DNA of 64,000 nucleotides, taken from positions 32,001 to 96,000 of the IMG/VR virus record IMGVR_UViG_3300037313_001869; one strand, 5' to 3'. Source of the DNA: a virus. Taxonomy: Duplodnaviria; Caudoviricetes. The notes beneath the pieces were generated by a model. That model was not told the DNA's origin and searched no databases. It worked only from the letters and a program-made list of their open reading frames with translations. Shown here in pieces: positions 1,752 through 60,415 of this stretch (positions are counted from its first letter, which is position 1; each line of letters starts with the position of its first letter). Both the position numbers and the translations under genes were made by a program.

Positions 1752-2102
1752 ATGGCCTCGCCCATTTTCAACAAGAAGCAGGAGCAACGGGGTCTCGCCA
1801 CCAAGGAGGCGCGGAGGATCAGCCGCACTTCCGACGGGCGGTCGTATGTCCCGGTTTCGGTCGCCACGGCCGAGAACCTGTGGAAGTACGCGACCCTGTG
1901 TGTGGAGAAGAAGGAGCCCTTCTCTCTCCTGAGCAACCTCGGCCCCTGGAACAAGGAAACCGGGACTCCGGCCATCCGGCTCATCCCTCCCGACCAGGTT
2001 CCCGAAGAGGCCGTGCGGCTCGTTCGTGAGGCGTTCGAGGCGATCGGCGCGGAGGTCCTCGAAGGACCTCCGGACCGGTTCGACCGCGAGGACGTGCTCT
2101 AA
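1752..2102 (+). CDS. hypothetical protein with RFDR tag
   Basis: Ends PDRFDREDVL-TAA. Confidence 0.8.
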   Translation: MASPIFNKKQEQRGLATKEARRISRTSDGRSYVPVSVATAENLWKYATLCVEKKEPFSLLSNLGPWNKETGTPAIRLIPPDQVPEEAVRLVREAFEAIGAEVLEGPPDRFDREDVL

Positions 2103-2642
2103 GAGCGCCATCCACTCGATCTTGGCGAACGAGAGGCCGAGCGCGAGGGCCTCGGCCGCCGTGATGACGAGCCCGTCCTTGCCCTCGGCCTTGACCCGGG
2201 AGGGCATGATGGGCTCGCCCGGGTGGAAGGTGAAGACCACCTCCTTGCCGTCGTCCTCGCCGAGGATGGCCACGGTGAAGGGAGCGACCTTGGCTTCGGC
2301 AGGGCGAAGGGCGACGCACGCCTCGACGAAGCCCGTCTTCTTCGGGTCGCGCAGGACCACGGGCGTCTCGGGGGGCAGGTCGGCGAGAGCCGAGAGCCCC
2401 TCGAAGCCCGGAAGCTCGGCCCGGAAAGCCGTGCAACCCTTCATCACGGCCGGGTGCTCGTAGGGGGCCCACGAGGCCGAGAAGAGCGCCGTCTCGATGG
2501 CCGACGGTTCGAGGTCGTAGCCGCTGCCGGCCGCTGCCGGAGAGAGCCGGGAGCGCATGGCAAGGCAGCTCGCGAAGTAGGCCGAGAGGGCCGAGCGGGT
2601 GGTGGAGAAAGCGACGAGAACGCGGGCGGTCGAGTTGGTCAT
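2100..2642 (-). CDS. hypothetical protein (ends at TTA)
   Basis: GAGGGGG RBS and ATG at 2642; in-frame TTA at 2102-2100 coincides with the convergent gene's TAA; code-11 extension would run about 600 nt antisense. Confidence 0.7.
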
Positions 2643-2686
2643 GCCCCCTCGATGCGCGACCCCTCCGGTATCTGACACGGTGTAGA

Positions 2687-3685
2687 ATGCTTCTCGTGAC
2701 CGACCTCCGAAACAAGATCCTGCTCGGTTCGTGCGAAGACCTCATCTGGCAGGTCCCCGACGGGTTTCTGCCGGCGCTCGTCACGGACCCGCCGTATGGA
2801 CTCGGTAACCGAGAGCCCTCGGCCCGCGAGATCGACGCCTACCTCGAAGGAGGGCGGCTGAACCTCGGCGGCGACTTCATGAACAAGAAGTGGGACATTC
2901 CCTCGGTCGCGTTCTGGAGAGAGTGCTACCGGGCCCTCGAAGACGGCGCCTACCTCGTCTCGTTCGGAGGGACCCGAACCTACGATCTCATCGGCGCCGG
3001 GCTTCTCGCGGCGGGCTTTCGGTGGGTCGCGAAGCGATACTGGGTTCAGTCTCAGGGGATGCCGAAGGGCGGGACCATCGGCAAGAAGATCGACCAGAAG
3101 GCCGGCGCTACGCGAAAGGTCGTCGGCCTGAAGAAGCTGAACGAGCGAGACACGAAGACCTACTACCCGAAGGCCGAGGGCGGCTACGGCGGCATGGACC
3201 CGGCGAACCGTCCGGCAAGCATGTTGATCACCGAGCCGGCCACCGAAGAGGCCGAGCTGTGGGAAGGCTGGGGCTCGACGCTCAAGCCCGCGTGGGAGCC
3301 CATCTACGTCGTCTCGAAGGGCGAGCCTCGCCGGCCCCTCGACCTCGATACGTTCCTCTACTGCGCCAAGGCCACGAAGAGCGAGACCACGCTCCGGGGC
3401 GAGATCGAGAACGATCACCCGACCAAAAAGCCGGTCGAGCTGATGCGCTGGCTTGTGCGTGCTGTCGCTCGACCCGGGGACCTCGTGCTCGACCCCTACG
3501 TGGGCTCAGGGTCAACGGCCGAGGCGCTCGTTCACGAGGGCATGGCCTACCTCGGCTTCGAGCGAGACCCGGCCTTTCACAAGATCGCCGACACCCGCGC
3601 AAGCATCGTGCTCGCAGAGCGCCAGGAGTTCGATGGGCATCGAAATGCTTTCGACCTGGCCATGTCCCTCGGAGACGACGAATGA
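2687..3685 (+). CDS. DNA N4-C/N6-A methyltransferase (beta class)
   Basis: TDPPY, HPTKKP, VLDPYVGSGST motifs; true start may be GTG 2696. Confidence 0.9.
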   Translation: MLLVTDLRNKILLGSCEDLIWQVPDGFLPALVTDPPYGLGNREPSAREIDAYLEGGRLNLGGDFMNKKWDIPSVAFWRECYRALEDGAYLVSFGGTRTYDLIGAGLLAAGFRWVAKRYWVQSQGMPKGGTIGKKIDQKAGATRKVVGLKKLNERDTKTYYPKAEGGYGGMDPANRPASMLITEPATEEAELWEGWGSTLKPAWEPIYVVSKGEPRRPLDLDTFLYCAKATKSETTLRGEIENDHPTKKPVELMRWLVRAVARPGDLVLDPYVGSGSTAEALVHEGMAYLGFERDPAFHKIADTRASIVLAERQEFDGHRNAFDLAMSLGDDE

Positions 3686-4452
3686 ACGCAGCCGCTCTCA
3701 TCCTCTCTGACGCCTTCGAGACCCGAGACGAGTGGGAGGTCCTCCTCTCTTCGGTTCTACCGGGGGCACACGTTGTTCTCGTCGAGGAGGGGCTCTTTCT
3801 CCGCTCCCTTCAGGCGAGGCGAGCGGGCTTTCACCTTCGCGACACGATCGCGTGCCTCTACCCGGGCGACCGGTCGAAGCTAGCCTACCTCTTCCGGGCG
3901 CCGATGAGCGAGAAGTCGCTGACGGACAACATCCTGAGGCACGGTACCGGGGGCCTGCACATCGACGCTTGCCGGGTCCAGACGAGCGACAAGCTCGGCG
4001 GAGGGGCCGAGAAGCGCTGCACCTTCGAGGACTCGGAAGGGTGGTCCCGCCCCTGGATGAAGGACCCCGAAGCCCAGGCGGCCTACGCGGCTCGGGCCCA
4101 GGCGGCCGTAGCACGGGCCGAGCAGCTCGGGAGGTGGCCCGCAAACCTGCTCCTCGTCCACGACCCTTCCTGTGGCCCCTCGTGCGCCCCTCTCTGCCCC
4201 GCGGCCCGTATCGGGGTTCAGAGCGGGCGACGGCCGGCCACCCTTACGGGGAGGGCCGACGGACCCCAGGAGAACCCCGCCACGGCCCGCCCCGACGCCT
4301 TCTTCGGCAACCTGAAGGGCGGTATTGGCGTGGTCTACGCCGACGACGGGGATGCGTCGCGGTACTTCCCCCAGTTCCGCAACGAAGAGGAGCTGTTCTC
4401 CTGGCTCGAACGGCTGGTGACGCCCGAGGGCAAAGCGTGCCTTCGCTTGTAA
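3682..4452 (+). CDS. methyltransferase-related protein lacking catalytic motifs
   Basis: GTGGLHIDACRV, GRWPANLL, ASRYF motifs resembling the variable insert of phage N4/N6 methylases. Confidence 0.65.
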   Translation: MNAAALILSDAFETRDEWEVLLSSVLPGAHVVLVEEGLFLRSLQARRAGFHLRDTIACLYPGDRSKLAYLFRAPMSEKSLTDNILRHGTGGLHIDACRVQTSDKLGGGAEKRCTFEDSEGWSRPWMKDPEAQAAYAARAQAAVARAEQLGRWPANLLLVHDPSCGPSCAPLCPAARIGVQSGRRPATLTGRADGPQENPATARPDAFFGNLKGGIGVVYADDGDASRYFPQFRNEEELFSWLERLVTPEGKACLRL

Positions 4453-4457
4453 AACCT

Positions 4458-4464
4458 CGGTGTA
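4458..4464 (+). promoter_or_regulatory. CGGTGTA start-proximal motif (representative of about 31 copies)
   Basis: 9 nt upstream of ATG 4474; full list in findings. Confidence 0.7.
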
Positions 4465-7625: not shown

Positions 7626-8138
7626 ATGGCGACAAGCTACATCAAAGATCCGTACGTCTACCTCGCGGCCCAGCTTTTCGGCGTGAAAGACGAAGAGGTG
7701 ACGTTCGACATGCGCGAGGCCATGAGGCGCGCGGTCAGCTACGCGGCCGAATCCGGCGCCCCTGCCAAGGTCCGGTTCTCGCTGCTTCGGCAGCACCTCA
7801 ACGGCCTGGGAAACCACCTCGACGGCATCAAGCTCCCGTTCACGCTGACCTGTGACCAGGGGAACATCGAGGCGCTTCTCGACTACTTCGCGACGCCGAA
7901 GACCGGTCCGTCCGAAGTCTCGCCGGGCCTCTACGAGCACTTCAAGGGCACGCGCTACCGGGTCCTTCTTGTCTCCCGCGACTCCGAGAGCCGGGAGAAG
8001 CGCGCCATCTACACCCCCCTGACGCCCGAGGAAGGGTGGGACGGGGTGCCGTGGGACCGTCCGGTCGGCATGTGGGGCGACCTTGTGAGGTGGCCCGACG
8101 GCAAGTACCGTACGCGCTTCGCCCGCGTGAGCGACTAA
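7626..8138 (+). CDS. DUF1653-domain protein
   Basis: PGLYEHFKGTRYRV...WDRPVGMW...RF; motif upstream. Confidence 0.75.
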   Translation: MATSYIKDPYVYLAAQLFGVKDEEVTFDMREAMRRAVSYAAESGAPAKVRFSLLRQHLNGLGNHLDGIKLPFTLTCDQGNIEALLDYFATPKTGPSEVSPGLYEHFKGTRYRVLLVSRDSESREKRAIYTPLTPEEGWDGVPWDRPVGMWGDLVRWPDGKYRTRFARVSD

Positions 8139-8585
8139 GGCATCGACCAAGAGGTACCGCAGATTCATGCGCGTATCCTGATCGCGGATCTTCCGGAACC
8201 CCGGGCCCAGCTCGTCGGCGAGCGGCTCGGGGAACTGGATCACGGTCGAGAGCTGATCCTGCTGCCGGCAGTAGCAGACGAGGCCAAGCAAGCTCGTCGT
8301 CGGGTCGTCGCAGCGGTAGAGGCGGTGGGCCAGGTGCTCGCAGAAGAGCGAGAAGAACACTTCGGCGTTCGCCGCTTGGTAGTAGACCGGTTCGAGCCTC
8401 CGGCCCCAGGGGTACCAGAGCAGCCGCCGCATTCTCTCCCGGCCCCGCAGCGATTTGCTGGCCAGGAAAGCGAACTCGGCGTGAGCCGGATCGTCGTGGT
8501 GGGTGACATGCCAGCCGCAGGCGGCCAGCTCGCCGGCCTCGTCGATGGCCGCTTGCAGGGTGGGGTAAGGGCCGTACGTCTTCAC
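8136..8585 (-). CDS. hypothetical protein (ends at TTA)
   Basis: In-frame TTA at 8138-8136; code-11 ORF would run on to 5682 across other genes; start codon uncertain. Confidence 0.6.
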
Positions 8586-8634
8586 CTCTTCTGTCAGACC
8601 ACAAGTGCTTTTTCGTCCGGTGTACCTGAAACCC

Positions 8635-9045
8635 ATGGACTTCGACTCACTCATTGGACGGGAAGTGGACTTTTACGGGGTCGACAACAATCGCTTTCGG
8701 TTGGGTGTGACCGCCAGTGAGAGCGTGACGTTCGAGGCCATCGAAGACCCGAACGACGGCTACCGATCCATGATGGAAGAGATCCGCGTCGTGACCGACG
8801 GCTCCGGCATCTTCTTTCGCTACCCCATCGCTCGCGTCCGGATCGAGCGAGTCCAGGATTCGTTCGCGGGCTACCTCTTGCGGGACGTGGCGCGTGACCA
8901 TGTTTGGCTCAAGGTCGGGACCAGCAACACGGGCGACTACTATCCCTACTTCACGTTCGATTACACGGTCTGTGAGAACTTCGTCCATGACGACAACCCC
9001 GAGCCGACGGGCTCGCCGCGGTACGATCGCGAGGACGTGCTGTGA
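8635..9045 (+). CDS. hypothetical phage protein with RYDR tag
   Basis: Motif 10 nt upstream; ends SPRYDREDVL. Confidence 0.8.
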   Translation: MDFDSLIGREVDFYGVDNNRFRLGVTASESVTFEAIEDPNDGYRSMMEEIRVVTDGSGIFFRYPIARVRIERVQDSFAGYLLRDVARDHVWLKVGTSNTGDYYPYFTFDYTVCENFVHDDNPEPTGSPRYDREDVL

Positions 9046-42847: not shown

Positions 42848-42850
42848 GCG

Positions 42851-47458: not shown

Positions 47459-47654
47459 GCCCTCGGCCGTCGCAGCCGTGAAGCTGTCCCCCGCCTTCGG
47501 CTGGTACTTCACCGACCAGCATATTACGTGGGAGACCTCCTCGAAGCGCTACCGGACGCAAGACGAGGCCGTCTCAGGCGCCCTCGCGGCCGGCTTCGCG
47601 GCCGTGAAGGTCGACGGCAAGATCGTCGCCAAGCGCCCCAAGAACGAATCGTAA
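47421..47654 (+). CDS. hypothetical protein
   Basis: Packed ORF. Confidence 0.6.
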   Translation: MKKIKPERLKAREPSAVAAVKLSPAFGWYFTDQHITWETSSKRYRTQDEAVSGALAAGFAAVKVDGKIVAKRPKNES

Positions 47655-47670
47655 ATCCAAAGGAGCTATC

Positions 47671-48225
47671 ATGAGCAAGCCCATCGTCCGCCCAGGAAAT
47701 CCCATGTTCACGGCCACTACCCCGGGCACTGTGAGCCTGATGAGCCTTCTTGGCCCCGGGCTACGGTCCGGCAACATCGTCCTCTCCCTCGACCAGACCC
47801 GGAACCTCAACCGGATCTACGGCTTCGACGAGGAGAAGCCGAACCAGAGGCCCCCGCGCCCTAAGCCTCCGGAGCCCCTCCCTCCGAACGCTTCGTGGGA
47901 GGCAAAGCGCGACTACAACCGCGCCCTCGAAGACCACAAGAGCGCCGTCGAGAGCTGGGAGAAGTGGACCGACCCACGCTCCTTTCTGCAAGCGGGCGCC
48001 GACCGGAACATGATCCGCTACGCCGAGGCCGACGGGATGCGCCTTGTCGCCTGGATCGCCAAGTACGTCGAGGCCGGAGAAGACCCTCTGAAGACCCTCA
48101 TCCAGATGGCCTCCGACGCGGGTTTCGACGTGGACCCCTCGGACATCGAGTGGGCGAACGGCGAAGAGGGCGAAGAAGACGACGAGGAGGCTCCCGAGGG
48201 GACGCCGGCCGAGGCGACGGTGTAG
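47671..48225 (+). CDS. hypothetical protein
   Basis: AAGGAG RBS; acidic tail. Confidence 0.8.
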   Translation: MSKPIVRPGNPMFTATTPGTVSLMSLLGPGLRSGNIVLSLDQTRNLNRIYGFDEEKPNQRPPRPKPPEPLPPNASWEAKRDYNRALEDHKSAVESWEKWTDPRSFLQAGADRNMIRYAEADGMRLVAWIAKYVEAGEDPLKTLIQMASDAGFDVDPSDIEWANGEEGEEDDEEAPEGTPAEATV

Positions 48226-48233
48226 AGCCAATC

Positions 48234-48767
48234 ATGAAAAGCCCCCAGGAACTTCAGGACCTCCTGCACCAAGCTCTCACCGACATGCCCGCGATGCTCG
48301 ACGACACGGGCGGGTGGGAGAGCCTCGACATCACCTACGAGCCACCCCGGGTCGAGAGGCTCTTCCGCCCCTTCGCGGGCGACTGCCGGCTCTACCTCCA
48401 CCGGCTTCATCCCATCCCGAAGGGGCAGGTTCCGCTCTACCACCCTCACCCGTGGTCGAGCATCGTGCTCATCGTCTCGGGGGGCTACGACATGGGCGTG
48501 GGCTACGGCAAGGGCCAGGAAGAGCCCATCGTGGCGAGCCGCCTCTACCTCCCGCCTGGGACCATCTACTCGATGACCAGCGCCGACGGATGGCACTACG
48601 TGGCCCCGAAGGTGCCCACCCTCAGCATCATGATCACCGGGCCGAGGTGGGACCGCTGGTCACCCGGGCCGCCCCCGGGGACCCGGCTCGGGCCCCTCTC
48701 GAACGAAGACCGGGCGAATCTCTTCGAGGACTTCCGCGCCTATTTTCCAAAGCCCAAGAGTGCCTGA
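48234..48767 (+). CDS. cupin-fold protein
   Basis: LYHPHPW...SGGY...WHYV; motif 9 nt upstream. Confidence 0.7.
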   Translation: MKSPQELQDLLHQALTDMPAMLDDTGGWESLDITYEPPRVERLFRPFAGDCRLYLHRLHPIPKGQVPLYHPHPWSSIVLIVSGGYDMGVGYGKGQEEPIVASRLYLPPGTIYSMTSADGWHYVAPKVPTLSIMITGPRWDRWSPGPPPGTRLGPLSNEDRANLFEDFRAYFPKPKSA

Positions 48768-48941
48768 AGAAGGGCTGGGCTCGCTTGCGTAAAATGCCCC
48801 GCTTGCGCCGCGGGTCAAGTCGGGGACTTTACGCAAGTCAGGCGCGTTGTAGGTACAGGGTATGTGCGCCTCCTTGCGCTGGGAGCTGATGGCCCTCGAC
48901 CGGGCCCGTAGCGGTAAGCTGTCTATCGCCTTCCCTGAGAT

Positions 48942-49721
48942 ATGCAGGTACTCAGGGAAGGCGACACGGGCGACCTCGTCACGCAGTGGCAGAACTTCCT
49001 GGTAGGGCTCGGTCTGGAGCTGTGCTCCACCGGCGAGTTCGACGCCGTGACGACCGACTCGACCAAGATGTTCCAGAAGAACAACGGCCTCGTGGCGGAC
49101 GGGGTCGTGGGGCGCGGTACCTGGGCAAAAGCCGTCTTTCTCGGCTTCGGCGAGATGACCGATGCACAGCCGGACCAGGCGTCCCCCGCCTTCCCCCCGA
49201 AGCCGGACTTCCCTGCTCTCTCGGCGCAGGGGCGGGCCGAGGTGTTCGGCGCCTTCTCGTTCAAGCCGGCTCCGACCGACAGCAACCCCGAGGGCATCCA
49301 GCTTCTCGACGACTGGGCGAAGAAGAATCTCGTCTCGGTCGTGGTGCCCCAGCTCGTCGGCGTCCCTGGGGCCCCCTCGGACGGCAAGGTTCTCTTTCAC
49401 CGGCTCGCGGCGGGTCAGCTCGTCAGCCTCTTTCAGGCGTGGGACGACGCCGGGCTCATGGGCCGCGTTCTCTCGTGGGCAGGCTCGTACGCCCCTCGGT
49501 TCATCCGGGGCAGCCGTACGGTGCTCAGCAACCACGCCTACGCTTCGGCCTTCGACATCAACGCCACCTGGAACGGCCTCGGCAAAGAGCCGGCGCTCGT
49601 CGGTCAGCGTGGGTCGGTTCGCCTGCTCGTGCCCCTGGCCAACGAGCACGGCTTCTTCTGGGGCGGGCACTTCCCGAACAGGCCGGACGGGATGCACTTC
49701 GAGGTCGCGAAGGTGCTCTGA
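48942..49721 (+). CDS. endolysin: PG-binding domain + M15 peptidase
   Basis: ADGVVGRGTW; SNHAYASAFD and DGMHFE zinc motifs. Confidence 0.9.
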   Translation: MQVLREGDTGDLVTQWQNFLVGLGLELCSTGEFDAVTTDSTKMFQKNNGLVADGVVGRGTWAKAVFLGFGEMTDAQPDQASPAFPPKPDFPALSAQGRAEVFGAFSFKPAPTDSNPEGIQLLDDWAKKNLVSVVVPQLVGVPGAPSDGKVLFHRLAAGQLVSLFQAWDDAGLMGRVLSWAGSYAPRFIRGSRTVLSNHAYASAFDINATWNGLGKEPALVGQRGSVRLLVPLANEHGFFWGGHFPNRPDGMHFEVAKVL

Positions 49722-50125
49722 TGCCGACCCTCGGTCCTTTGCCCGACCTCGACTTCGATAGCGCCTTGCCGTCAAGTCCGCCCGAGTACGGCGGCCTGAC
49801 GGCCTGGTTGACCCCAGACGGGCGCGTCTCGGCCGTCCCTGTCTCTGGCCTGACCCACATCGGCCGGCTCGCTCCTATGCCCTCCTCCGCCACGCTGCTG
49901 CCCGTTCGGATCACCCCGCCCATGCCGACGACCGAAGAGACCTGGGACGCGCTCGTGCGATCCATCGAAGAGGTCAAGGCCGGCCGGCCACCTCGAACCG
50001 AACTCGAACATGCCTTGGCCGAGGCTATGCGTCGCAACCGGGAACGAGCCGAACAAGAGGCACAGGCAGAGATTTCACGGCCCACGCGACATGACCGGCT
50101 CGCCTCGGGCGACGATATCCTGTAA
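49721..50125 (+). CDS. hypothetical protein with RHDR tag
   Basis: TGATG overlap; ends PTRHDRLASGDDIL. Confidence 0.7.
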   Translation: MPTLGPLPDLDFDSALPSSPPEYGGLTAWLTPDGRVSAVPVSGLTHIGRLAPMPSSATLLPVRITPPMPTTEETWDALVRSIEEVKAGRPPRTELEHALAEAMRRNRERAEQEAQAEISRPTRHDRLASGDDIL

Positions 50126-50136
50126 GATCGGCGTCC

Positions 50137-50364
50137 GTGACCCTCGCGGACGAGATCGAGCACGACTGGCGCTTCACCCTCCTTCGGCCGTTCCCGAAGC
50201 CGCACAGGGAGGAGCGTGACCCGAACGCCCCTCCGAAGTCGATGATGGAGCAGGTTTTCGAGGACCTGTCGAGGAAGATCGCGGCGGAGCTAGACGAGGA
50301 GATCCTGGGGTCGATTCCGGAGCTTCCCGTCTACCCCTCCCGCTTCGAGCGCCTCGCCGCCTAA
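50137..50364 (+). CDS. small protein with RFER tag
   Basis: Ends YPSRFERLAA-TAA. Confidence 0.7.
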   Translation: MTLADEIEHDWRFTLLRPFPKPHREERDPNAPPKSMMEQVFEDLSRKIAAELDEEILGSIPELPVYPSRFERLAA

Positions 50365-51288
50365 GAGCCCGTCCATCACCATGCTGAGCAGGGCCATGCG
50401 GACGTAGAGCCCGTTCTGGACCTGGGTGAAGTACCGGGCCCGGGGGTCCTGGTCGATGGCCTTGTCGATCTCGCTCACCCGGGGCAGCGGGTGCAAGATC
50501 ATGGCGTCGGGCTTCATGGACTGGACCATGGGCAGGGTGAGGTTGCACGAGTCCTTGACGGCCGCGTAGGACTCTTCGTTGGCGAAGCGCTCCTTCTGCA
50601 CCCTCGTGATGTAGAACACGTCGGCGTATTCGAGCGCGTCGCTGAAGCGGCTCGTCAGAACGACGGGGATGTCCTTCGGCAGAAGATCGCGGTACTCGTC
50701 CGGCAGCCGGAGAGACAGGGGGGCGACGAGGTAGAGGGACCGGAGCTTGTACCGGCTGAGGAGCTTCAGAAGCGAGTGGACCGTGCGCCCATTCTTCAGG
50801 TCCCCGACGAACGCCACACTCAGGCCGTCGAGCGACTCCCTCTCGGCCGCGATCGTGTAGAGGTCGAGAAGGGCCTGGGTCGGGTGCTCGCCGATGCCGT
50901 CACCTGCGTTGATGACCGGCACCGGCGAGACCTCGGCCGCCCGGGCCGCCGCGCCCATCTCGGGGTGCCGGAGCACGATGGCATCGGCGTACTGGCCGAG
51001 CGTCATGATCGTGTCTTCGAGCGTCTCGCCCTTGGTCACGCTCGAAAACTGCACGCCCTGGGTGATCGGGATGACCGAGCCCCCGAGCCTCGTCATGGCT
51101 GCGATGAACGACGACGAGGTCCGGGTCGAGGGCTCGTAGAACAGGCACGCCAGCACCCGGCGCCGCAGCCGATCGGAGCTGTGGTAGCGCGTGACCATCT
51201 GGGCCATCTCGCGCGTGCGGGTGAAGACCTCTTTGATGTGGTCGTTCGTGAACTGGTCGACGCTGAGGATGTGCTTGAGCTTCTCCAT
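50362..51288 (-). CDS. pyrB: aspartate carbamoyltransferase catalytic subunit (ends at TTA)
   Basis: FYEPSTRT, KGETLED, HPTQALLD, HPLPR, QVQNGLYVRMALL; 308 aa if TTA is a stop. Confidence 0.95.
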
Positions 51289-51815
51289 CATTCCTCCGGC
51301 AGGCGGCTGATCTTCCAGAACTTCGAGAACGAGTCTTGAGGCTTCTTCTCCCACCCGGGCCGCTGACCGGTACAGGTGACGAGCCACTTCGAGGGATGAA
51401 GCTTCTGGGGCCGCTTGAACCGGGCCTCGTCATCGGAGAGCTTCGAGATGGCCTCGGCGTCGGGCATATAATACTGGACGACCCACTCCTCGGGCCCGCG
51501 CTTCTCCACGATCTTCCACATGTTCTGGTTGATGCAGAGGTGCTCGCCCTTCTTGCCTCCGAAACCGTGGCCGTCCTCGAAGACCGTGATCGGCTCTCCC
51601 TCCCCCGTCTCGACCAGATCGTACCAAGGGTAGCTGTGCGAGACCGGCGGCGGGTCGGGGTAGACCGTCTTGCCTTCGAGGATGCGCTGAAAGAGCGGCG
51701 AGTGCGCCAGGTCCACAGCGAATCGGTGCGCCCTGTCGGGGTACATGCCGTAGCGCTGGCGGTATTCGAGCCAGCGGGTCACGGCCTTGATGACCTTGTC
51801 GGTGGAGTCGTCCAT
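51288..51815 (-). CDS. hypothetical protein
   Basis: CGGTGTC 10 nt upstream; TGATG overlap with pyrB. Confidence 0.75.
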   Translation of the reverse strand: MDDSTDKVIKAVTRWLEYRQRYGMYPDRAHRFAVDLAHSPLFQRILEGKTVYPDPPPVSHSYPWYDLVETGEGEPITVFEDGHGFGGKKGEHLCINQNMWKIVEKRGPEEWVVQYYMPDAEAISKLSDDEARFKRPQKLHPSKWLVTCTGQRPGWEKKPQDSFSKFWKISRLPEE

Positions 51816-51822
51816 GGCGTCC

Positions 51823-52575
51823 TAAGACACCGAGAGCGAGCGCGTCGATTCGGCCATAGAGCGGGTCGAGGCCGTTCATCTCGTTTCGCACGAGGTGGCC
51901 GAAGTCCTCGTCCGGGATGCCCGTCGACTCGGCTTCCGAGGCGTGGCTTCTCCAGCTCTCGTCGTTCTTCTTCGGAGGAGGGGCGAGCACGCGCCAGGTC
52001 TGTCCGCCCTCGTCCTCGATGGCCCCCATCTCGTTCCGGAAGCGCATGTCGGGGATCACGATACCCTTGGGGGTCTCGTACCCGCCTCGATCGTACGGCC
52101 ACTGAAGGAGTCCCTGGGTGTGGTGGTAGCCGTACTTCCCCCCAGGCGAGAGAACCTTGCGGGCGATGTTGAAGGCGTAGTTGACCCAGGTATCCTCGAA
52201 GCAGGTTCGGCCAAATTCCGTTCCCAACTTTTGCAAAGCTTCGCGCGGCGTGAGGTAGGTCATGCGAAGATGGCACTTGGGGCACGCCAGGCCCTCGTAC
52301 TCCAGATGTTCGAGCACCATGTGCTCCGGGGCCCTCTTCACCCCCGCCTGGGCGCACCAGGGGCACACCTTCCACTTCGGGTAGCGCAGGTCGGGCACGC
52401 TCCGAAGCTCCGACGGCCCCCAGAGCTGCTCTTCGCTGAAGTCGTAGACCTCGCGGCAGTAGCGCTTCAGGGGGTCAGCGAAGGCGATCTTGGCGAAGCC
52501 GTGGTGGTTGACGAGCCGGTCGGCAATCGTGTCCTTGCCCGACCCGGCGGGCCCCGAGATTCCTACGATCCTCAT
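51823..52575 (-). CDS. deoxynucleoside monophosphate kinase with Zn-finger insert (ends at TTA)
   Basis: GPAGSGKDT, FADPLK, TPREALQKLGTE, PDMRFRNE, HASE. Confidence 0.88.
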
Positions 52576-52581
52576 CTGGTC

Positions 52582-53901
52582 CTATTTGGTCCCTTCTGGA
52601 CCGACCACCTCCACGCTCCCAGCCAGCGTCGTCTTCAGGTGAAAGCGAGTGCCGAGCTTGTAGCGCCCGAACTCATCGACCGTACTCGGCCGGTGGGTGT
52701 AGCTGTGGTCCTTGTCCGAGAAGGTGACCTGATAGAAAGCTTCGCGGCTCTCCCGCTCACGCTCCTCACCGACACACCCCTCGTTCAGGCGGACCTCTTC
52801 GGCCGTCGGCCAGCGGGTCTCGGTCGTGGCCCCTGAGACGGGCACGCTCCTCTGCCGCCCCCACCCCCACACGTCCCACCCGAAGAAGTCGTAGTAGACC
52901 GGGTCGTCGCGGTAACGGGGCACCTGCCTCGTCCTCGGCTCATCGCAGTACCGGGGGGTGCAGCTCCTCGGCCTTCCTCCGGAGCACTGCCTCCCCCCGC
53001 CGCTGCACTGCTGGCCCCCGCCCGAGCAAACCCGGTCGCCTCCCGTACAAGAGGCGTAGCCGTTCTTGTTGCTTGTGCAGTTCCTCGGGGTCGTCGTGCA
53101 AGTCGGGGGTACCGTCACGCACGTCCTCGGTACGTCCACGCACGTAGGGGCGATCTCGGGGGTGCAGTCTTCGCCGCACCTCACCCGCTCGGAGTAGTGC
53201 TCGGTATCGTAATGGTCGAGAACGTGGTCGCTGTGGTGGTAGCGCTTGCCGAGGTTCTGGACGTTGAAGGACCCCGCCTCGGGCGTGAAGCCCTCGCGGT
53301 GGAAGACCTTCCAGCGGTCGACATGGATCGTGTGGCGCCAGGTGACCGCAGAGACCACGCCCACCACATCCCGCTGCCGGATGAAGATGCCGTAGCCCCC
53401 AACGCACATGGAGAGGAAGCCGAGCAGGAGAAGAAACGGGCCCCAGTTCCGCCTCTCGGGTGGGGTTGGAACCTGAAACCGTGGCCTCTCTTCTTCTTTC
53501 GGGGCGGACTTCGGTACCGGCGTCACCCGGCCAGGCTTGCCGTAGCCTCCGGTGGGCGGAAATGGGTCCCCGGCGAGCTGGGCCTTGACCTCGGCCCCCG
53601 TGCCCGAGATGCTCTTGCCCTTCGTGCTCATGTCCTGGTCGGCCCCGCATTGCTCGCAGGTACCATCGAGCTTCCGGCGCATCGAGCCACAGAACTTGCA
53701 CTTCCAGTCGGCTCCAGCCTTGGCGTGGCGGAGCTGCTCTTGGTCGGTCACGGCCGCCGCAGGCGAATCATCGTCAGGCATGAAGAAGCCGTCTTCTTCG
53801 GTCTTCGGCCGGCCACACTTCTGGCACTCCTTGTGGCGGCCTTTGTTGACGTGGCCCTCGGCTGGACAGCGCCAGAGCATCTCGATCTGGTATTCAGGCA
53901 T
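52582..53901 (-). CDS. membrane protein with N-terminal zinc ribbons and Cys-rich extracellular domain
   Basis: WxC...CxxC repeats, one TM helix, CxxxxxxC and CSGG repeats. Confidence 0.8.
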   Translation of the reverse strand: MPEYQIEMLWRCPAEGHVNKGRHKECQKCGRPKTEEDGFFMPDDDSPAAAVTDQEQLRHAKAGADWKCKFCGSMRRKLDGTCEQCGADQDMSTKGKSISGTGAEVKAQLAGDPFPPTGGYGKPGRVTPVPKSAPKEEERPRFQVPTPPERRNWGPFLLLLGFLSMCVGGYGIFIRQRDVVGVVSAVTWRHTIHVDRWKVFHREGFTPEAGSFNVQNLGKRYHHSDHVLDHYDTEHYSERVRCGEDCTPEIAPTCVDVPRTCVTVPPTCTTTPRNCTSNKNGYASCTGGDRVCSGGGQQCSGGGRQCSGGRPRSCTPRYCDEPRTRQVPRYRDDPVYYDFFGWDVWGWGRQRSVPVSGATTETRWPTAEEVRLNEGCVGEERERESREAFYQVTFSDKDHSYTHRPSTVDEFGRYKLGTRFHLKTTLAGSVEVVGPEGTK

Positions 53902-53977
53902 GGGGTTGCCTCCTAGACACCGTCAGGGCAACGAAAGGCCAACCGTCCCTCCCGATGCCTTTCGGAGACCCCCGCCC

Positions 53978-54523
53978 ATGTCCTCTGTCACCGTGCTGAT
54001 GCGCCGCGACTACCAGCTCGTCGAGCAAGCGCTCCCCCGAGACACCCTGGTCATTCAGGTCCCGACCGAGTACGGCTGGGGCTCACCCGACGGCAACCTT
54101 TACGGCGTCGAGATCGAAGAGGTGCTCCCTCCCTCCCGAGGGCTCCGAAGCTACCGCCGCGAAGCCCGAGCCCAGACCGAGAAGCGCTACCGCCTCCGGT
54201 TCTCCGAAAGCTCCGCCCGGTACGTCCGAGCGATTCGCGGGCCGCTAGAGAAGTTCGTGATGGAGCGACGGAAGAAGGCCGATGTTCGAGAGTACGTCGA
54301 GATCGAGGTGAAAGCCTGCCGGCTCGGCGACCTCCCCGAAGGTGCCCACGCCCTTCTCGAACACCGCGACGAGGACGACGATTTCTCGTGGGAAGCCCTC
54401 CGCGTCCACCGAGTGCCCCCGACCCGCAAGCAGGTGGAGAAGGCCGAAGGCAAGATCCGCTACAAGCAGCGGGCCTACCTCCGGCTCCCGACTCGGTACG
54501 ATCGCCTCAGCGCCGAGGACTTA
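53978..54523 (+). CDS. hypothetical protein with RYDR tag (ends at TTA)
   Basis: Ends PTRYDRLSAED then TTA at 54521, coinciding with convergent TAA. Confidence 0.7.
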
Positions 54524-56209
54524 GTCGAGCCCCGGGGGCAGCGCCACGGGCGTTTCGTCCCCGCCCTCGATGGCGGCCATGTCCTCGGGCACCCGCCCTT
54601 CCTTCACGAGCCGGGCGACCATCTTCGCGAGCTGAGCCCGCCGGGTATCGTCGAGCGATCCGCCCTTGGTCGGGTTCGGAAGGCGCGTGGTCAGGTAGAG
54701 GGCCTCGACGAGCGTGATCTGGGAAGGGGCTTCGGAAAGGAGCTTCTTCGCCGCGGGCCCGATCCCGTAGATGTTCGGCCCGAACTCGACCACGTTCAGG
54801 TACGTTTCGAGGATCTGCTCTTTCGTCAGGCACGATTCGAGCGCGAAGGTGAGAAACGCCTCCTGAGCTTTGCGCCCGAGCGTCCGCTCCCTCCGAAGCC
54901 AGAGATTCTTCGCGAGCTGCATCGTGAGGGTCGATCCCCCACGCACTACCTTGCCCGCCTTCACGTTCTCGATGAGCGAGTTCTCGTAGGCTTGCCGGAT
55001 AAAACCCCGATGGACGAAGAAGCCCGGGTCTTCCGTATTCGTGAGCGCCATGGCCATCGTCGGGCTCACGTCCCCCAAGGGTACCCACTCGGCCGTTGCG
55101 GGCCCGGTCGTACGCTCGAAGGGCTGCCCTCCCTTGTCGTAGGCCACGTAGGTGAAGCGCTTGCGGAGCGTCTGGGCGAAGCCCAAGGGGGCACAGGCGG
55201 CCTTGCACGTCATGTCGAGCGAGAGCTTGGGCTTTTCCCCGGCGTCGACCTTCGCCCGGATGTCGCCCGAGAGCTGGAGGCTCGCAAAGGGGGCCGGGGC
55301 CTTCAGCTCGTCCGGGAGAAGCCCGAGCCAGTCCTGGCACGACCCGGCGGCCTCCACCGTCTTCGCCTTGGCGTCAACCGCAAGCCGGACCGAAGCCCGC
55401 TCGACCCAGAGCTTGCCTGCCGGATCGAAGGTCACCCGCAGATCGTGGGACGTGAGAGATTCGGAAGAAAGCGCCGGACTCTCTACTGTGGCCCTCTTCG
55501 CCACGGCAACGAGCTGGCCCCCCTCCTCAGTAACCGTTGCCTCCTCGGCCAAGGCAGCGAAGGGGTAGGGCACCTTCGGGCTCGGGGGGCGGTTCTCGAT
55601 CGAGAGTTGCCCCACGGTGGCCTTCCGCTCCTTCGGCAGAACCCGTACGTCCGCGGAGGAGACCATCGGTACCCCAGGCCCGATGGCCAGCGCCGTCGTG
55701 AGCACGACCTCGGTGCCGTCCGTCCGGGCCCAGCCTTCGCCGAAGAGAACCGTCTGGTAGCCGTGCTCGGTGAGCGGCGGATAGAGGACCTTGGCCCCCT
55801 CGAACGAGACCCGGCCCTCTTCGTAGGCGACGCCCTGAAAGCGCACCTCGGCGCCGTCCTTGCGGACCGTGACGGTCATTGCCCGCGCTGTCACCTGGTA
55901 GCCGCTGGCCGTGGTGCCTGAGCCCGCCTTCCTTGCCCCAGGGTCGACCACGAACGAGCCCCCCTCGGCCACAACGTGCTTGTCCCAGGAGCAGAAGACG
56001 CTCTCGGCCCGGCCCTGGACCCAGGGCTTTGTCACCGACACGCCGCGGAGGGTAAGCCCCTTCTGCCCGACCGAGAGCGCCTCGACCTGGAAGTCAGGCC
56101 CCAGATTTTTTCGCACGTAGGCGAGGGATATCGCGGGGGCGGCGACATAGAAGACGACAAGCGACCCGACGAGCAGGCCGACGACATAAAACAGGCGTTT
56201 TGCGTTCAT
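54521..56209 (-). CDS. peptidoglycan glycosyltransferase (GT51, monofunctional type)
   Basis: TEDPGFFVHRG, RGGSTLTMQLAKNL, RKAQE, YLNVVEFG; N-terminal TM; no transpeptidase domain. Confidence 0.9.
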   Translation of the reverse strand: MNAKRLFYVVGLLVGSLVVFYVAAPAISLAYVRKNLGPDFQVEALSVGQKGLTLRGVSVTKPWVQGRAESVFCSWDKHVVAEGGSFVVDPGARKAGSGTTASGYQVTARAMTVTVRKDGAEVRFQGVAYEEGRVSFEGAKVLYPPLTEHGYQTVLFGEGWARTDGTEVVLTTALAIGPGVPMVSSADVRVLPKERKATVGQLSIENRPPSPKVPYPFAALAEEATVTEEGGQLVAVAKRATVESPALSSESLTSHDLRVTFDPAGKLWVERASVRLAVDAKAKTVEAAGSCQDWLGLLPDELKAPAPFASLQLSGDIRAKVDAGEKPKLSLDMTCKAACAPLGFAQTLRKRFTYVAYDKGGQPFERTTGPATAEWVPLGDVSPTMAMALTNTEDPGFFVHRGFIRQAYENSLIENVKAGKVVRGGSTLTMQLAKNLWLRRERTLGRKAQEAFLTFALESCLTKEQILETYLNVVEFGPNIYGIGPAAKKLLSEAPSQITLVEALYLTTRLPNPTKGGSLDDTRRAQLAKMVARLVKEGRVPEDMAAIEGGDETPVALPPGLD

Positions 56210-56221
56210 CGCCCCCCTGGT

Positions 56222-56276
56222 TACACCGCCCCGCGCCCGGCCCGTACTTTTCCTGTGCATCGTGAGAGCCGGTGTA
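56222..56276. promoter_or_regulatory. divergent pair of CGGTGTA motifs
   Basis: Minus copy 56222-56228 serves GT51; plus copy 56270-56276 serves rSAM. Confidence 0.7.
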
Positions 56277-56289
56277 AGAGACTGGCACG

Positions 56290-57492
56290 ATGCGCTCCAT
56301 GGAACTCCGCCTCAACGACCAGCTTCTCTACCATTCGACCTTCGACCCAGCGACGGGCAACCTCGTCCGCGCGGTCGAGATCGGCGAGAGGTACGATTCG
56401 CCGTGGGATGTGCATGGCAAGTCCGACGAGGACAAGGCGTGGAAGGCACGCTACGGCTACCGCCACGGGCCGTTCTCGCCCTCGCCGGAGCTGGTGGACA
56501 TCGCCATCACCGACAAATGCTACATGGGCTGCACCTACTGCTACCAGGACAGCCGCCCGAAGCGCGACCACGCCCCGAAGGAGCTGGTCGAGAAGATGAT
56601 CCAAGGCTTCGATTACGCCCCTTACCAGGTCGCGATCGGCGGCGGCGAGCCGACGCTTCACCCTGATCTGCCCTACATCCTGCGGCGGGCACGGGAGCTG
56701 GGCTCGGTACCCAACTACACGACCGCGGGCGATCAGATCCGCGAGGACGTGATCGAGGCGACCAACGAGGTCTGCGGCGGCGTCGCCATGACCTACCACA
56801 GCTTCAAGGGCATCGACTGGTTCGTCTCGCACTACCAGGCCCTTCGCGACCGGCTGAAGGTCCAGCTCAACGTCCACCTCATCGCTGACAAGGACGTGGC
56901 CACGAACCTGCTCGCGCTCTGTTCCCGGTACAAGGAACTCGGGCGGCTCCGGCTCGTCCTGCTCGCCTACTACCCTGACGTGGGCCGGGCGTCGATGGAC
57001 CGGCTCCTCGCCAAGCGTACGTACATGAAGGACCTGCCCGAGGCGATCAAGTTCGCCCGCGTCTCGGGCTTCGACATTGCCTTCAGCGAGGGGCTCCTTC
57101 CCTTCTTCCTCTCGCGCCCCGGTCTCGGGGTCGAGACGAAGTTCGCGATGGCCGTCGAGGGCAAGTTCTCGTGCTACTTCGACACGCGCGGCCGGATCGC
57201 GGTATCGAGCTTCGACCACCGGGGCCTCAACTGGGAGCGCGACGACGAGGTTCGCCCTACGGTCTTCACCCACAGCTCGCAGAGCATGTGGGACAAACTC
57301 TGGGGGAGCCACACCAGCCCTCGGGGCGACGCCTGCTACGACTGCGCCCAGCGGCCGAGGTGCGCGACGCCCCACGACTTCCACTACTTCGTCTGCGCCT
57401 TCGCCCAGCACAACCAGACGCCGCTCCGCGAGCCCGACGTGACCCCCGAAACCGCCCACGACCGCGTCCTCAAGGACGACGAGGTGATCTGA
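56290..57492 (+). CDS. radical SAM protein
   Basis: CYMGCTYC, GGGEP; C-terminal Cys cluster. Confidence 0.92.
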   Translation: MRSMELRLNDQLLYHSTFDPATGNLVRAVEIGERYDSPWDVHGKSDEDKAWKARYGYRHGPFSPSPELVDIAITDKCYMGCTYCYQDSRPKRDHAPKELVEKMIQGFDYAPYQVAIGGGEPTLHPDLPYILRRARELGSVPNYTTAGDQIREDVIEATNEVCGGVAMTYHSFKGIDWFVSHYQALRDRLKVQLNVHLIADKDVATNLLALCSRYKELGRLRLVLLAYYPDVGRASMDRLLAKRTYMKDLPEAIKFARVSGFDIAFSEGLLPFFLSRPGLGVETKFAMAVEGKFSCYFDTRGRIAVSSFDHRGLNWERDDEVRPTVFTHSSQSMWDKLWGSHTSPRGDACYDCAQRPRCATPHDFHYFVCAFAQHNQTPLREPDVTPETAHDRVLKDDEVI

Positions 57493-57881
57493 TGCCTCTC
57501 CTTCTCTCCATCAACACGAGCTTCATCACCAACAGCAGCTCGGCCGTTCACCACTTCCCGCGCGAGCTTCTGAACGACCCGTCCATCCGGGCCTTCATCG
57601 CGGCGTTCGAGCTGGATGGCGGCGTCATCGGCTCGGACATGTGGTCGCGTGACCTCTGCACGACCGTGGCCATGACCCCCGAGCAAAAACAGGAGGTCCT
57701 CTCCAAGCTCGTCACGGGTTCGGAGTATTGCAGCCCTCCGTCCATCCAGACCGACGACGACACGATCCTCATCATCTACGGTGACGAGCACACGAGCGTG
57801 GCCTCGTCGCTCGCGCGGCTGATGGAGTCAGTGGCCGAGAAGCTGGGCATCAAGCTCCAGGGCAGCCAGGAGTACAACTTA
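57492..57881 (+). CDS. NSSS-motif protein (ends at TTA)
   Basis: TGATG overlap with rSAM; SFITNSSS; TTA at 57879 coincides with convergent TAA. Confidence 0.7.
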
Positions 57882-58199
57882 CTCTTCGGGGTCTTCGTCG
57901 TAGAAGCCCCCGCCCCGGTCTTCCCCTTCGAGCACGAGGTAGCCTGGATGCAGGCCCTCGTGGACCTCACGGTGGCATCGGCAGCAAAGGAGCACCGTGC
58001 GGTCCAGCTCGACCTTGACCACGTCCCACTTCTGCCGGGCTGAGATATTGAAGTCCTTCTGCCGAGGGTCGGGGTGGTGAAAGTCAAATCCGGACAGGGA
58101 CTTGTCGTAGCCGCAAATCTGACAGCGACCGCCCTTGTATGCGACGGCTCGTGCCCGAAGCTCCCGCCGCTTTCTCGCTCGGTCCCATCGGTCGGCCAT
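57879..58199 (-). CDS. HNH endonuclease
   Basis: GGRCQICGY...FHH.DP..K...LLCCRCHREVH. Confidence 0.88.
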   Translation of the reverse strand: MADRWDRARKRRELRARAVAYKGGRCQICGYDKSLSGFDFHHPDPRQKDFNISARQKWDVVKVELDRTVLLCCRCHREVHEGLHPGYLVLEGEDRGGGFYDEDPEE

Positions 58200-58245
58200 T
58201 GCCCAAGAGCCCGTCAAAAGCAGGACTATCAGCGACTACCCTACC

Positions 58246-58731
58246 ATGAACCGGGTCCATCTCCCCCTGATCCCGCGCCAGCCGGACGGCCTTTCTGGGC
58301 TGCGGTCGCTCGATAGCCCGTGCGAGCTGTTTCTCCCTGGCGAGCCCATGCCCGAAGGCGAGTGTTTGGGGGACGGACACTACCTCTGCAAGGAGTGCGA
58401 CAACCTCACCATTGCCATGGAAGACAAGCCCTGGTCTCGGTTCACCCGGCTTCTGCTCTACGACCTCGACGGCTACTTGCGCCTGCCCCCGCCTCCGGGA
58501 CCCCGGGCCGAGCCCACGACCATGTGGACCGTGGCCTATGCGTCCGACGTGTGTGGGGGTATGAAGCTTCAGACCTACCGGACGAGGGACGAGGCCCAAG
58601 TCTTCGCCGAGGTCCTTTTCCGCGGGGGAGTGCAGGACGTGATCGTTCGGCAGCTTCCCTCGGACACCTTCGACGCCAAGAACAACGAGCTGCCCGTCTA
58701 CGGGCGGTTCAAGCCCAGGGACATCCTATGA
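58246..58731 (+). CDS. hypothetical protein
   Basis: C..DGHYLCKEC; ends YGRFKPRDIL. Confidence 0.7.
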   Translation: MNRVHLPLIPRQPDGLSGLRSLDSPCELFLPGEPMPEGECLGDGHYLCKECDNLTIAMEDKPWSRFTRLLLYDLDGYLRLPPPPGPRAEPTTMWTVAYASDVCGGMKLQTYRTRDEAQVFAEVLFRGGVQDVIVRQLPSDTFDAKNNELPVYGRFKPRDIL

Positions 58732-59108
58732 TCTGGCTAGTGTTTCTCGGTTTTCTAGTGACCAGCCTCGTCGCCTACCTCGGGTGGAGGCTCTACCGGG
58801 TCGAGGACGCCCTCGCCGAAGCCACCTCGCGGCTCTCGGCCCTCGAAGGCGAACCGGACAAGGCAGGCTCGTACCGAGACGCAGCCCCCAGGTCGTCGGC
58901 CCCCGCTCCGGCGCCTACGCCCGCTCCTACCCCCGGGCGGCAACCCCTATCGGGTAGGCCGTCCCACTGCCCGGCGTGTGGCGCCATGATCGCTTCTTTC
59001 GACACCTCCCTCTGCAAGGGATGCAGCGAGTACCGGGGTAAACCGCACCTGCACTTCCGGTGCTCCTGCGGCTATTTTGACCTGTACCGGACGGTCCAGG
59101 CGATCTGA
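58728..59108 (+). CDS. membrane-anchored zinc-finger protein
   Basis: N-terminal TM; CPACG...HLHFRCSCG. Confidence 0.7.
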   Translation: MIWLVFLGFLVTSLVAYLGWRLYRVEDALAEATSRLSALEGEPDKAGSYRDAAPRSSAPAPAPTPAPTPGRQPLSGRPSHCPACGAMIASFDTSLCKGCSEYRGKPHLHFRCSCGYFDLYRTVQAI

Positions 59109-59181
59109 GCCACGAAAGACTAGACGGGGAAGTTGGCCCCGACTACCCTGGTGGGTTCTGCTAGCGCCTAGGAGGTAGCTC

Positions 59182-59448
59182 GTGCGGAAAAAGCTGGTCT
59201 TGCAGGATACCTTTCGGGTTCTTGAAGCGGGCCCGTGGGACGCCGATAGTTTCGGTCCGGTGCGCGTTGCGCTCTACCAGACCCGGGGCGATGCTTTTTT
59301 TCCCTCCCGTATGGTCGTGTCAGTGACACAGCCGAAAGGCGGGGAGCTGTTTCGTTTCGACGCATCGACCTACCAGTTCGAGGGGGGTACGTTGCGGGTC
59401 TTCTGTGACAAGGCCGTCTCGCGCTGGGTCTTTCGTACGGTCCAGTAG
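59182..59448 (+). CDS. hypothetical protein
   Basis: AGGAGGT RBS before GTG. Confidence 0.65.
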   Translation: MRKKLVLQDTFRVLEAGPWDADSFGPVRVALYQTRGDAFFPSRMVVSVTQPKGGELFRFDASTYQFEGGTLRVFCDKAVSRWVFRTVQ

Positions 59449-59489
59449 CCTCTCCGGGTAGCCCCGGATCGCTCGGTAATCCTTCGATC

Positions 59490-59525
59490 GAACCCCTGAG
59501 GGAAACACCCTTCCCTCAGGGGTTC
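59490..59525. repeat. perfect 15-bp inverted repeat upstream of dam
   Basis: GAACCCCTGAGGGAA-ACACCC-TTCCCTCAGGGGTTC. Confidence 0.75.
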
Positions 59526-59554
59526 ACCCTGCGATCCGGTGTCTTGGAGAGAAG

Positions 59555-60415
59555 ATGAGCAGAGCACAACCTTTCCTGAAGTGGGCTGGCGGCAAGAGGC
59601 AACTTCTCCCCGCCCTTCTCCAGCGGCTTCCGTCGGAGATGAAGACGTACTACGAGCCCTTCCTCGGTGGTGGTGCGCTCTTCTGGGCCCTTGACGCCGA
59701 GGACGCCTTCGACCGAGCCGTGGTCGGGGACATGAACCCCGAGCTGGCCAACGCCTACCGGCTCTTCGCCGGCCCGGCCCATGGGGTCGAACGGGTGGTC
59801 GAGCTGCTGAAGGGCTACCCCCACACGCGCGAGTTCTTCGAGGACATGCGCCGGAAACTGCCGCACGAGCTGGGCGAAGCCGAGCGCGCAGCCTGGCTCA
59901 TCTACCTGAACCGAACGTGCTTCAACGGCCTCTACCGGGTCAACAAGATGGGGGTCTTCAACGTGCCCTTCGGCGACTACGAAAACCCGACCATCTGCGA
60001 CGAGGACAACCTGCGCGAGGTGGCCGAAGCCTTGCGCAACCCTCGGCTGACGTTCATGCAGGCAGACTTCGAGCAAATCGTCCAGACGGCCGAGGCTGGG
60101 GACGTGGTCTACTTCGATCCGCCGTACTTGCCCCGAAGCGATACGGCCCGATTTGCCGAGTACGTCGTCGATGGGTTCGACATGGCGAAGCACGAACGAC
60201 TCGCCAGGGTCTTCGCCGACTTGGCCAACCGAGGGGTTGGCGTGCTCCTGTCGAACTCGGACACGCCCGCAACCCGGGAGCTGTACCGGGACTTCCAGAT
60301 CGACACGGTCTACGCCAAGCGAGCCATCAACGCCAAGGGCGACAAGCGGGGGCCCATCCCCGAGATCCTGGTCTCGGCGAACCTGACCCCCGCGCCCGCT
60401 GCCGAAGTCGGCTTA
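59555..60415 (+). CDS. dam: Dam-family DNA adenine methyltransferase (ends at TTA)
   Basis: PFLKWAGGK, EPFLGGG, YFDPPY, LLSNS, EILVSAN; 286 aa if TTA is a stop. Confidence 0.92.

Follow-up and report, generated by a model that had tools for sequence, protein, structure and literature searches.

The window analysed here is a stretch of 64,000 nucleotides, bases 32001–96000 of a 435,218-bp virus record (IMG/VR IMGVR_UViG_3300037313_001869; the phage is called G000 below). The record is complete, with direct terminal repeats, and represents a soil megaphage with a G+C content (GC) of 0.648. Genes in the window include those for an aspartate carbamoyltransferase (ATCase), a DNMK-like kinase, a GT51 transglycosylase, a DUF1653 protein, an SNF2 helicase, an AAA ATPase and a D12 adenine methyltransferase. 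The original prediction, made from the letters of the window alone, was that TTA (UUA) acts in this DNA as a fourth stop codon, at 17 in-frame sites that lie at the natural ends of genes. All 17 triplets were confirmed as TTA on the strand assigned to them. Coordinates are those of the window unless marked as genome positions, and run-on denotes the distance in codons between a TTA and the first canonical stop after it.

As TTA is the reverse complement of TAA, two convergent genes can share a single triplet as their stop. Such sharing was the commonest arrangement of convergent genes in the genome (12 of 43 pairs), and six of the 12 two-way TAA/TTA stops lie in the window. The triplet at 2100–2102 ends a minus-strand gene (2103–2642; run-on 200 codons) and is on the plus strand the TAA stop of gene 1752–2102. 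That at 8136–8138 ends minus-strand gene 8139–8585 (run-on 817 codons) and the plus-strand DUF1653 gene (7626–8138), in which the domain finishes four amino acids upstream of the TAA. At 32307–32309 the TTA closes plus-strand gene 31557–32306 (run-on 92 codons) and the TAA closes minus-strand gene 32307–32870. The minus-strand ATCase gene (50365–51291) ends at the TTA at 50362–50364, five residues after its OTCace domain; the same triplet is the TAA of plus-strand gene 50137–50364, and an ATCase homologue stops one residue earlier than the TTA position. Plus-strand gene 53993–54520 ends at 54521–54523 (run-on 465 codons), where the minus-strand transglycosylase gene (54521–56209) has its TAA. 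Finally, the plus-strand D12 adenine methyltransferase gene (59639–60412), whose Pfam domain is complete before the TTA, ends at 60413–60415 together with minus-strand gene 60413–60595; the methyltransferase orthologue in the related phage G001 stops one residue later. The run-ons from 8136, 54521 and 2100 agree with the approximately 2.4, 1.4 and 0.6 kb estimated for them originally. At the convergent sites GC by codon position switches exactly at the triplet: to its left lies a plus-strand gene with high GC at third codon positions (GC3) that ends in TAA, and to its right a minus-strand gene in exact antisense register, for which the same triplet reads TTA.

Nine further sites show other arrangements. 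On the minus strand, gene 22901–23362 ends at 22898–22900 with a run-on of 41 codons, the next start being a GTG at 22890; gene 34602–35072 ends at 34599–34601, 6 nucleotides (nt) from a convergent plus-strand gene (34224–34592) that ends in TGA; gene 37781–38368 ends at 37778–37780 in a TTATG overlap that is also the start of an open reading frame (ORF) at 36891–37778; and gene 40805–41164 ends at 40802–40804 with a run-on of 190 codons. The DNMK-like kinase gene (51826–52575) ends at 51823–51825, also on the minus strand; downstream come an AGGA motif and the ATG of the next gene at 51815, and the run-on of 130 codons would cover that entire gene. On the plus strand, the AAA-ATPase gene (26063–27163) ends at 27164–27166 in the junction TTA GCC ATG, which leads into gene 27170–27562 and is of the same 'stop-NCC-ATG' type as is found at canonical stops. 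The other plus-strand cases are gene 29893–30237, ending at 30238–30240 with the protein tail ...SRFDKACRDGL; gene 31102–31539, ending at 31540–31542 in a TTATG context with a TGA five codons downstream; and gene 57492–57878, ending at 57879–57881, where GC3 drops from 0.91 to 0.72. The last two sites, 17525 and 38866, are less clear and are considered below with the points against this reading.

Genes were called with a codon log-odds model trained on long open stretches, in which TTA and the stop codons scored zero, and a call under translation table 11 was compared with one in which TTA was a stop. The second, which had been suggested as a check, gave less overlap and higher coding coverage. 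The number of genes increased from 498 to 536 for the whole genome and from 75 to 86 for the window; double-covered bases fell from 2633 to 699 and from 1014 to 71 respectively; and coding coverage of the window rose from 0.766 to 0.815. This call was blind to the earlier list of sites and ended 17 of the 86 window genes in TTA, exactly the 17 originally noted. Stop usage among the 536 genes was TGA 341, TAG 78, TTA 65 and TAA 52, so that TTA terminates approximately 12% of genes.

Coding potential around the codon was examined genome-wide by taking in-frame codons that follow 50 stop-free codons of positive score and scoring whether the next 50 codons are coding-like. The downstream flank was non-coding for 47 of 57 in-frame TTAs (82%), by comparison with 82.8% for canonical stops and 18.8% for the pooled sense codons; TTA thus differed from sense codons (Fisher p = 4e-25) and not from stops (p = 1.0). 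When all 64 codons were ranked by how often coding ends with no canonical stop within 30 codons, the first four were TAA (0.62), TTA (0.56), TGA (0.41) and TAG (0.39), followed in fifth place by ATA (0.36, with only 14 cases). ATA was not accepted as a further odd codon, several of its occurrences being clearly internal. Run-ons had a median of 73 codons and exceeded 100 codons in 23 cases. Only four TTAs had coding potential on both flanks, all of them at gene junctions or convergent ends, versus 32 such cases for CTA and 178 for TTG, in keeping with the earlier remark that these two codons do occur inside genes. A search of the called genes across the whole genome, likewise suggested as a check, gave no convincingly internal TTA.

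UUG is an ordinary sense codon in G000, with coding sequence downstream in 53% of cases, and UCA is a sense codon; TAG and TGA act as stops, and those TAGs with coding sequence downstream all have a nearby start codon. In-frame TAG or TGA within conserved genes, the mark of recoding to code 4 or 15, was not found in G000, and nor was a bldA-type use of UUA, read as leucine inside selected genes, there being no internal TTA. TTA occurs in the contexts of canonical stops, either in a 'stop-NCC-ATG' junction or overlapping the ATG of the gene that follows. No extended sequence motif was found around TTA ends. The base after TTA was G in 25, C in 15, T in 11 and A in 3 of 54 cases, and much of the C-TTA-G context arises because the last codon of the convergent partner usually ends in C. 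As a more general observation on this phage, same-frame tandem genes very often meet at a 'stop-NCC-ATG' junction (TGA CCC ATG, TAG CCC ATG, TGA GCC ATG), with a fixed 3-nt spacer and without an obvious Shine–Dalgarno sequence.

Comparison with relatives placed TTA where other phages stop. We used four related IMG/VR records, G001 (451,925 bp, GC 0.523), G002, G003 and G004, and metagenome contig L052. In a control, the same coding test scored TTA as an ordinary sense codon in the four related phage contigs (GC 0.52–0.55), which use it 2.7–5.7 times per 1000 codons. Orthologues from these sequences exist for 30 of the 54 TTA-ended ORFs. The homologue alignment proposed earlier showed TTA at the positions of canonical stops: the TTA coincided with an orthologue TGA, TAA or TAG at offset 0 in at least 10 genes, those ending at genome positions 119289, 173588, 180106, 199999, 208035, 213226, 216101, 272170, 355072 and 359065, and most other orthologue stops lay within five residues of the TTA. 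Aligned ends include ...KSLKSVCHMA-TTA in G000 with ...KTLKSVCHMP-TGA in a relative, and ...PGVRDGKW-TTA with ...PGVRTGNW-TAA; a stop/start overlap that reads TTATGC in G000 is TGATGC or TAATGC in three relatives.

The gene ending at genome position 199999 encodes an actin-like protein of the volactin family (PF25216; genome 199999–201156, minus strand; L051:1002–2120). This family is extremely conserved in huge phage contigs (approximately 70% identity, contigs of up to 458 kb), and the G000 protein has 1701 database homologues. The contigs of its four closest homologues (L053–L056; 74–80% identity) come from four other sequencing projects and were taken as sister contigs. In the regions sampled, L054 and L055 had no in-frame TTA in called genes (0 of 6172 and 0 of 3936 codons respectively), and the three in L053 and seven in L056 all lay at or past natural gene ends. 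In L056, 'NSNY TTA TGC' aligned exactly with 'NQNF TGA', 'NNNY TAA' and 'NENF TGA'; 'LRARL TTA' with the orthologue end 'LRARL TGA'; and 'QRFK TTA' with 'AKIK TGA' and 'KKFK TGA'. Across the clade and its outgroups the volactin stop position reads TTA, TTA, TGA, TGA, TAA, then further TGA or TAA, so that TTA is aligned with canonical stops within the clade also. One database protein, P0006, reaches 411 amino acids only by table-11 run-through of '...QEHEE TTA GCG', its expected length being approximately 337. The sister contigs have a GC of 0.56–0.59 without internal TTA; the missing sense TTA is therefore not simply an effect of high GC, and recurrence of the pattern in four contigs from other samples indicates that the trait marks a clade.

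Outside the window, G000 encodes a transfer-messenger RNA (tmRNA) that was missed by ARAGORN and matches RF00023 with 78.8 bits (E = 1e-30; genome 269912–270439, minus strand; L014:213–740). Its tag frame reads GCG AAC GAC AAC TTC GCC GCC TCG CCG GCC CTC GCG GCC TTA, that is ANDNFAASPALAA followed by TTA at the place of the usual tmRNA stop. The next canonical stop comes seven codons on, and reading through to it would bury the ...ALAA end; the tag of the G001 tmRNA ends in a canonical stop. As the phage has no SmpB, the tmRNA must use that of the host.

The 44 tRNAs of G000 include leucine anticodons CAA, GAG and CAG only and no tRNA-Leu(UAA); the 452-kb relative G001, in which TTA is leucine, has tRNA-Leu(UAA) and tRNA-Leu(UAG) besides. 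The tRNA-Leu(CAA) beside the tmRNA was compared as a possible mutated tRNA-Leu(UAA), and its identities to the two comparison tRNAs were nearly equal (52% and 53%). More broadly, the tRNA array (genome 266–300 kb) retains tRNAs with U34 for most codons that end in A (Ser, Pro, Thr, Ala, Gly, Arg, Gln, Lys and Glu) and none for UUA, CUA or GUA; G001 has all three.

The loss of coding potential at TTA, the positions of orthologue stops and the tmRNA tag together support the proposed sense-to-stop change, which is further backed by the want of a tRNA-Leu(UAA) among the phage tRNAs and by the like behaviour of the four sister contigs. On these comparisons it is very probable that neither this phage nor its nearest relatives read UUA as leucine, and that the codon terminates translation as a fourth stop. 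Such a sense-to-stop code change would be without precedent outside mitochondria and plastids.

Several points weigh against a fourth stop codon. The case for termination at UUA is itself drawn from sequence evolution. The least certain site is the TTA at 17525–17527 (minus strand), which ends a 94-amino-acid gene (17528–17809) and is followed, after a 66-nt spacer, by the SNF2 helicase gene (15323–17458) in the same frame; the SNF2 domain begins 174 residues past the TTA, relatives are too distant to resolve the N-terminus, and this TTA may instead encode a leucine within the N-terminal part of an SNF2 protein of 828 amino acids. The TTA at 38866–38868 (minus strand) is open to other readings; it closes a small, low-scoring ORF (38869–39072; 68 amino acids, coding score 10.6), and the gene after it (38365–38820) shares its frame. 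Most L056 TTAs have a canonical stop 1–9 codons on, which would fit tolerated short read-through too. The phage genome has no RF-1, PCRF, eRF1 or SmpB domain and no GGQHVN-like or GGQ motif; no release factor was found anywhere in the phage genome, just as none had been recognised in the window, and termination must be the work of the host.

The strongest competitor, which we regard as possible and rather unlikely, is that UUA is an unassigned, 'hungry' codon: the host would lack tRNA-Leu(UAA), or the phage would destroy it, and ribosomes stalled at UUA would be rescued by ArfA/ArfB-like factors, by drop-off with a phage PTH2, or by a slow near-cognate release factor. The phage has no tRNA for UUA and encodes a tmRNA, both of which would suit such a scheme, and L054 and L055, without any TTA in their sampled regions, resemble an unassigned stage. 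A candidate for drop-off chemistry lies at genome 331400–333300 (minus strand; L049:907–2208), where four elements cluster: a PTH2-family peptidyl-tRNA hydrolase gene (34.7 bits); a 77-nt tRNA-like RNA with normal acceptor, D and T arms, in which an 8-bp stem and 5-nt loop replace the anticodon arm; a genuine class-II tRNA(CUA) with discriminator A73, which resembles an amber suppressor, TAG being nonetheless a stop genome-wide; and a gene with a HAD_SAK_2 RNA-repair domain. Weak PTH2-like matches are present also in relatives that read TTA as leucine, and for this reason the cluster is given no role in UUA termination. Stalling would, moreover, make 12% of genes, large core proteins included, rely on a slow and costly event; most TTAs have no back-up stop, as the median run-on attests; and rescue by tmRNA would mark the proteins for degradation, with a second stall where the tag frame itself ends in UUA.

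A +1 shift at a hungry UUA, so that an overlapping stop (U-UAG/U-UAA) is read, has been proposed for the upstream ORF of Streptomyces adpA (PMC10732093) and is highly improbable here. A G or A follows 28 of the 54 TTAs, giving an immediate +1 stop, and the tmRNA tag reads TTAG. The remaining 48% are followed by C or T with no +1 or +2 stop within five codons, G or A at +4 is no commoner after TTA (52%) than after TAA (64%) or TGA (58%), and much of the G bias comes from the shared convergent triplets noted above. That TTA is ordinary leucine, with long C-terminal extensions or overlaps as a by-product of high GC, is scarcely credible: rare TTA is expected at 65% GC, and GC-rich genes usually leave their exact-antisense frame open, but coding potential collapses at TTA where orthologues stop, no other rare codon shows such behaviour, and the tmRNA tag would no longer end in ...ALAA. 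The sister contigs, too, lack internal TTA at GC 0.56–0.59, with TTA in use in the relatives at 0.52–0.55. The chance that the sites reflect assembly or base-calling artefacts, or that RNA editing of UUA to UAA restores stops, we consider negligible. Logan contigs from two soil metagenome runs of two studies showed no differences over window positions 40600–60500 (19.9 kb), which contain six of the TTA sites; one run gave a single 118.7-kb contig at depth 31 and the other several contigs at depth 9–11. None of the public runs listed as holding the sequence was an RNA run. A reservation against the fourth-stop reading attaches to this agreement, as both read sets may be source samples and hence not independent of the assembly; the four sister contigs with the same pattern come from other samples, projects and assemblies. 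To our knowledge, U-to-A editing is not known in bacteria or phages. Editing does occur alongside UUA stops in peDinoflagellate plastids (PMC12574857), and we found no direct point in favour of either artefact or editing in the phage.

As to how a fourth stop codon might arise, the lineage may first have lost UUA as a sense codon along with tRNA-Leu(UAA), most likely after adaptation to a host that does not decode UUA; substitutions of stop codons to TTA would afterwards have been neutral or useful, one use being the single TAA/TTA triplet that ends both convergent genes. Termination at UUA would be carried out by a host RF2-type release factor with altered codon recognition. We prefer this mechanism because 12% of genes rely on UUA, as does the tmRNA tag itself, because most sites have no back-up stop, and because rescue by a tmRNA whose own tag frame ends in UUA would be circular. 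The bacterial host of the megaphage clade could then itself use a four-stop code, in which UUA ceased to mean leucine and was taken over by a modified RF2; we advance this tentatively, as somewhat short of an even chance. If true, no free-living organism would have been known before to turn a sense codon into a stop, and the change could have escaped notice because TTA is rare in GC-rich genomes and code-prediction tools infer no new stops.

Full-text literature searches returned no report of a UUA/TTA stop in any phage or bacterium. All phage code changes known to us convert a stop codon to sense. High-GC bacteria such as Micrococcus luteus resemble G000 in having codons without a cognate tRNA, a codon-capture intermediate; such unassigned codons are simply avoided, whereas G000 makes positive use of TTA, to end 65 genes and in its tmRNA. 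Reassignment from sense to stop is otherwise known only in mitochondria and, from 2025 on, in a single plastid group. A UUA stop is linked to an RF2 Ser204 substitution in labyrinthulean/thraustochytrid mitochondria and in peDinoflagellate plastids (PMC12574857), and RF1a changes are linked to UUA and UUG both being stops (PMC12574857, PMC6821328). The organellar UUA stops are the nearest systems. One is the Thraustochytrium/labyrinthulean mitochondrial code (NCBI table 23), in which, as in the phage, UUA alone has passed from leucine to stop, UUG stays leucine and translation is of bacterial type; tRNA-Leu(UAA) is lacking there, and from the phage's own tRNA set (PMC12574857). That system is an organelle with an mtRF2a Ser204 change, whereas here the subject is a phage of a bacterium, with TTA as one of four stops that ends 12% of genes. 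The peDinoflagellate plastid (pRF2 Ser204) is likewise a UUA sense-to-stop case outside mitochondria, recognised from codon position and orthologue ends (PMC12574857), but has UUA and UCA as stops together with RNA editing; in the phage UCA is sense and editing is not known. Since that report describes the plastid case as the first outside mitochondria, a phage or bacterial case would be new. The mitochondria of Marsupiomonadales and Pseudoscourfieldia (Pycnococcus) also changed leucine to stop after the codon had disappeared, but with UUA and UUG as stops and a modified mtRF1a (PMC6821328, PMC12574857); the phage retains UUG as sense and a tRNA-Leu(CAA).

Among phages, those with recoded stops (TAG to Gln, TGA to Trp; preprint 10.1101/2021.08.26.457843) are likewise lineages outside table 11 and, like G000, carry a large tRNA set including tRNA(CUA). 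Their change runs from stop to sense; that in G000 would run in the opposite direction, with TAG still a stop. Streptomyces bldA and phage Hau3 (PMC10732093), the nearest phenomenon in bacteria, share with G000 a GC-rich setting in which UUA is scarce and phage genomes are purged of it, and in which events are triggered in the absence of charged tRNA-Leu(UAA); in that system UUA is read as sense within regulatory genes and can trigger bypassing, whereas TTA in G000 is never internal and marks gene ends. We regard this as a code change of a familiar type in a biological setting that is new for it. A phage clade ending about one in eight genes with UUA would extend sense-to-stop changes to viruses and probably to bacterial hosts, and a concrete, testable prediction follows for the RF2 and tRNA-Leu(UAA) of the host. 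For the genomes themselves, table-11 annotation fuses or over-extends dozens of proteins, and the two-way TAA/TTA stop is a compact design for convergent pairs.

A scan of GTDB genomes for the tmRNA tag NDNFA...AA-TTA gave nine matches, none of them in a tmRNA, and the Atlas neighbours of the ATCase, examined in an attempt at host inference, were of mixed taxonomy. Megablast of 14 kb against GenBank phages returned no matches, and a first metagenome scan for relatives found none. No relatives were found for the protein of 53552–54520, nor for that of 8139–8654 in a set of 5.8 billion proteins, and the DNMK-like protein had no match in four relatives.

Two features of protein ends were also noted. 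In the AAA ATPase (26063–27163, plus strand), more than 40 residues of nearly pure Asp/Glu form the C-terminal tail, directly before its TTA. Many unrelated proteins of this phage share the C-terminal motif R-[FY]-[DE]-[RK] with approximately four residues between it and the stop (...RFDREDVL, ...RFDRPDPV). The motif was tried as a ruler for protein ends, for which the two TTA-ended genes that carry it are too few; examples of the tail are the plus-strand proteins ending at 2100 and 50362.

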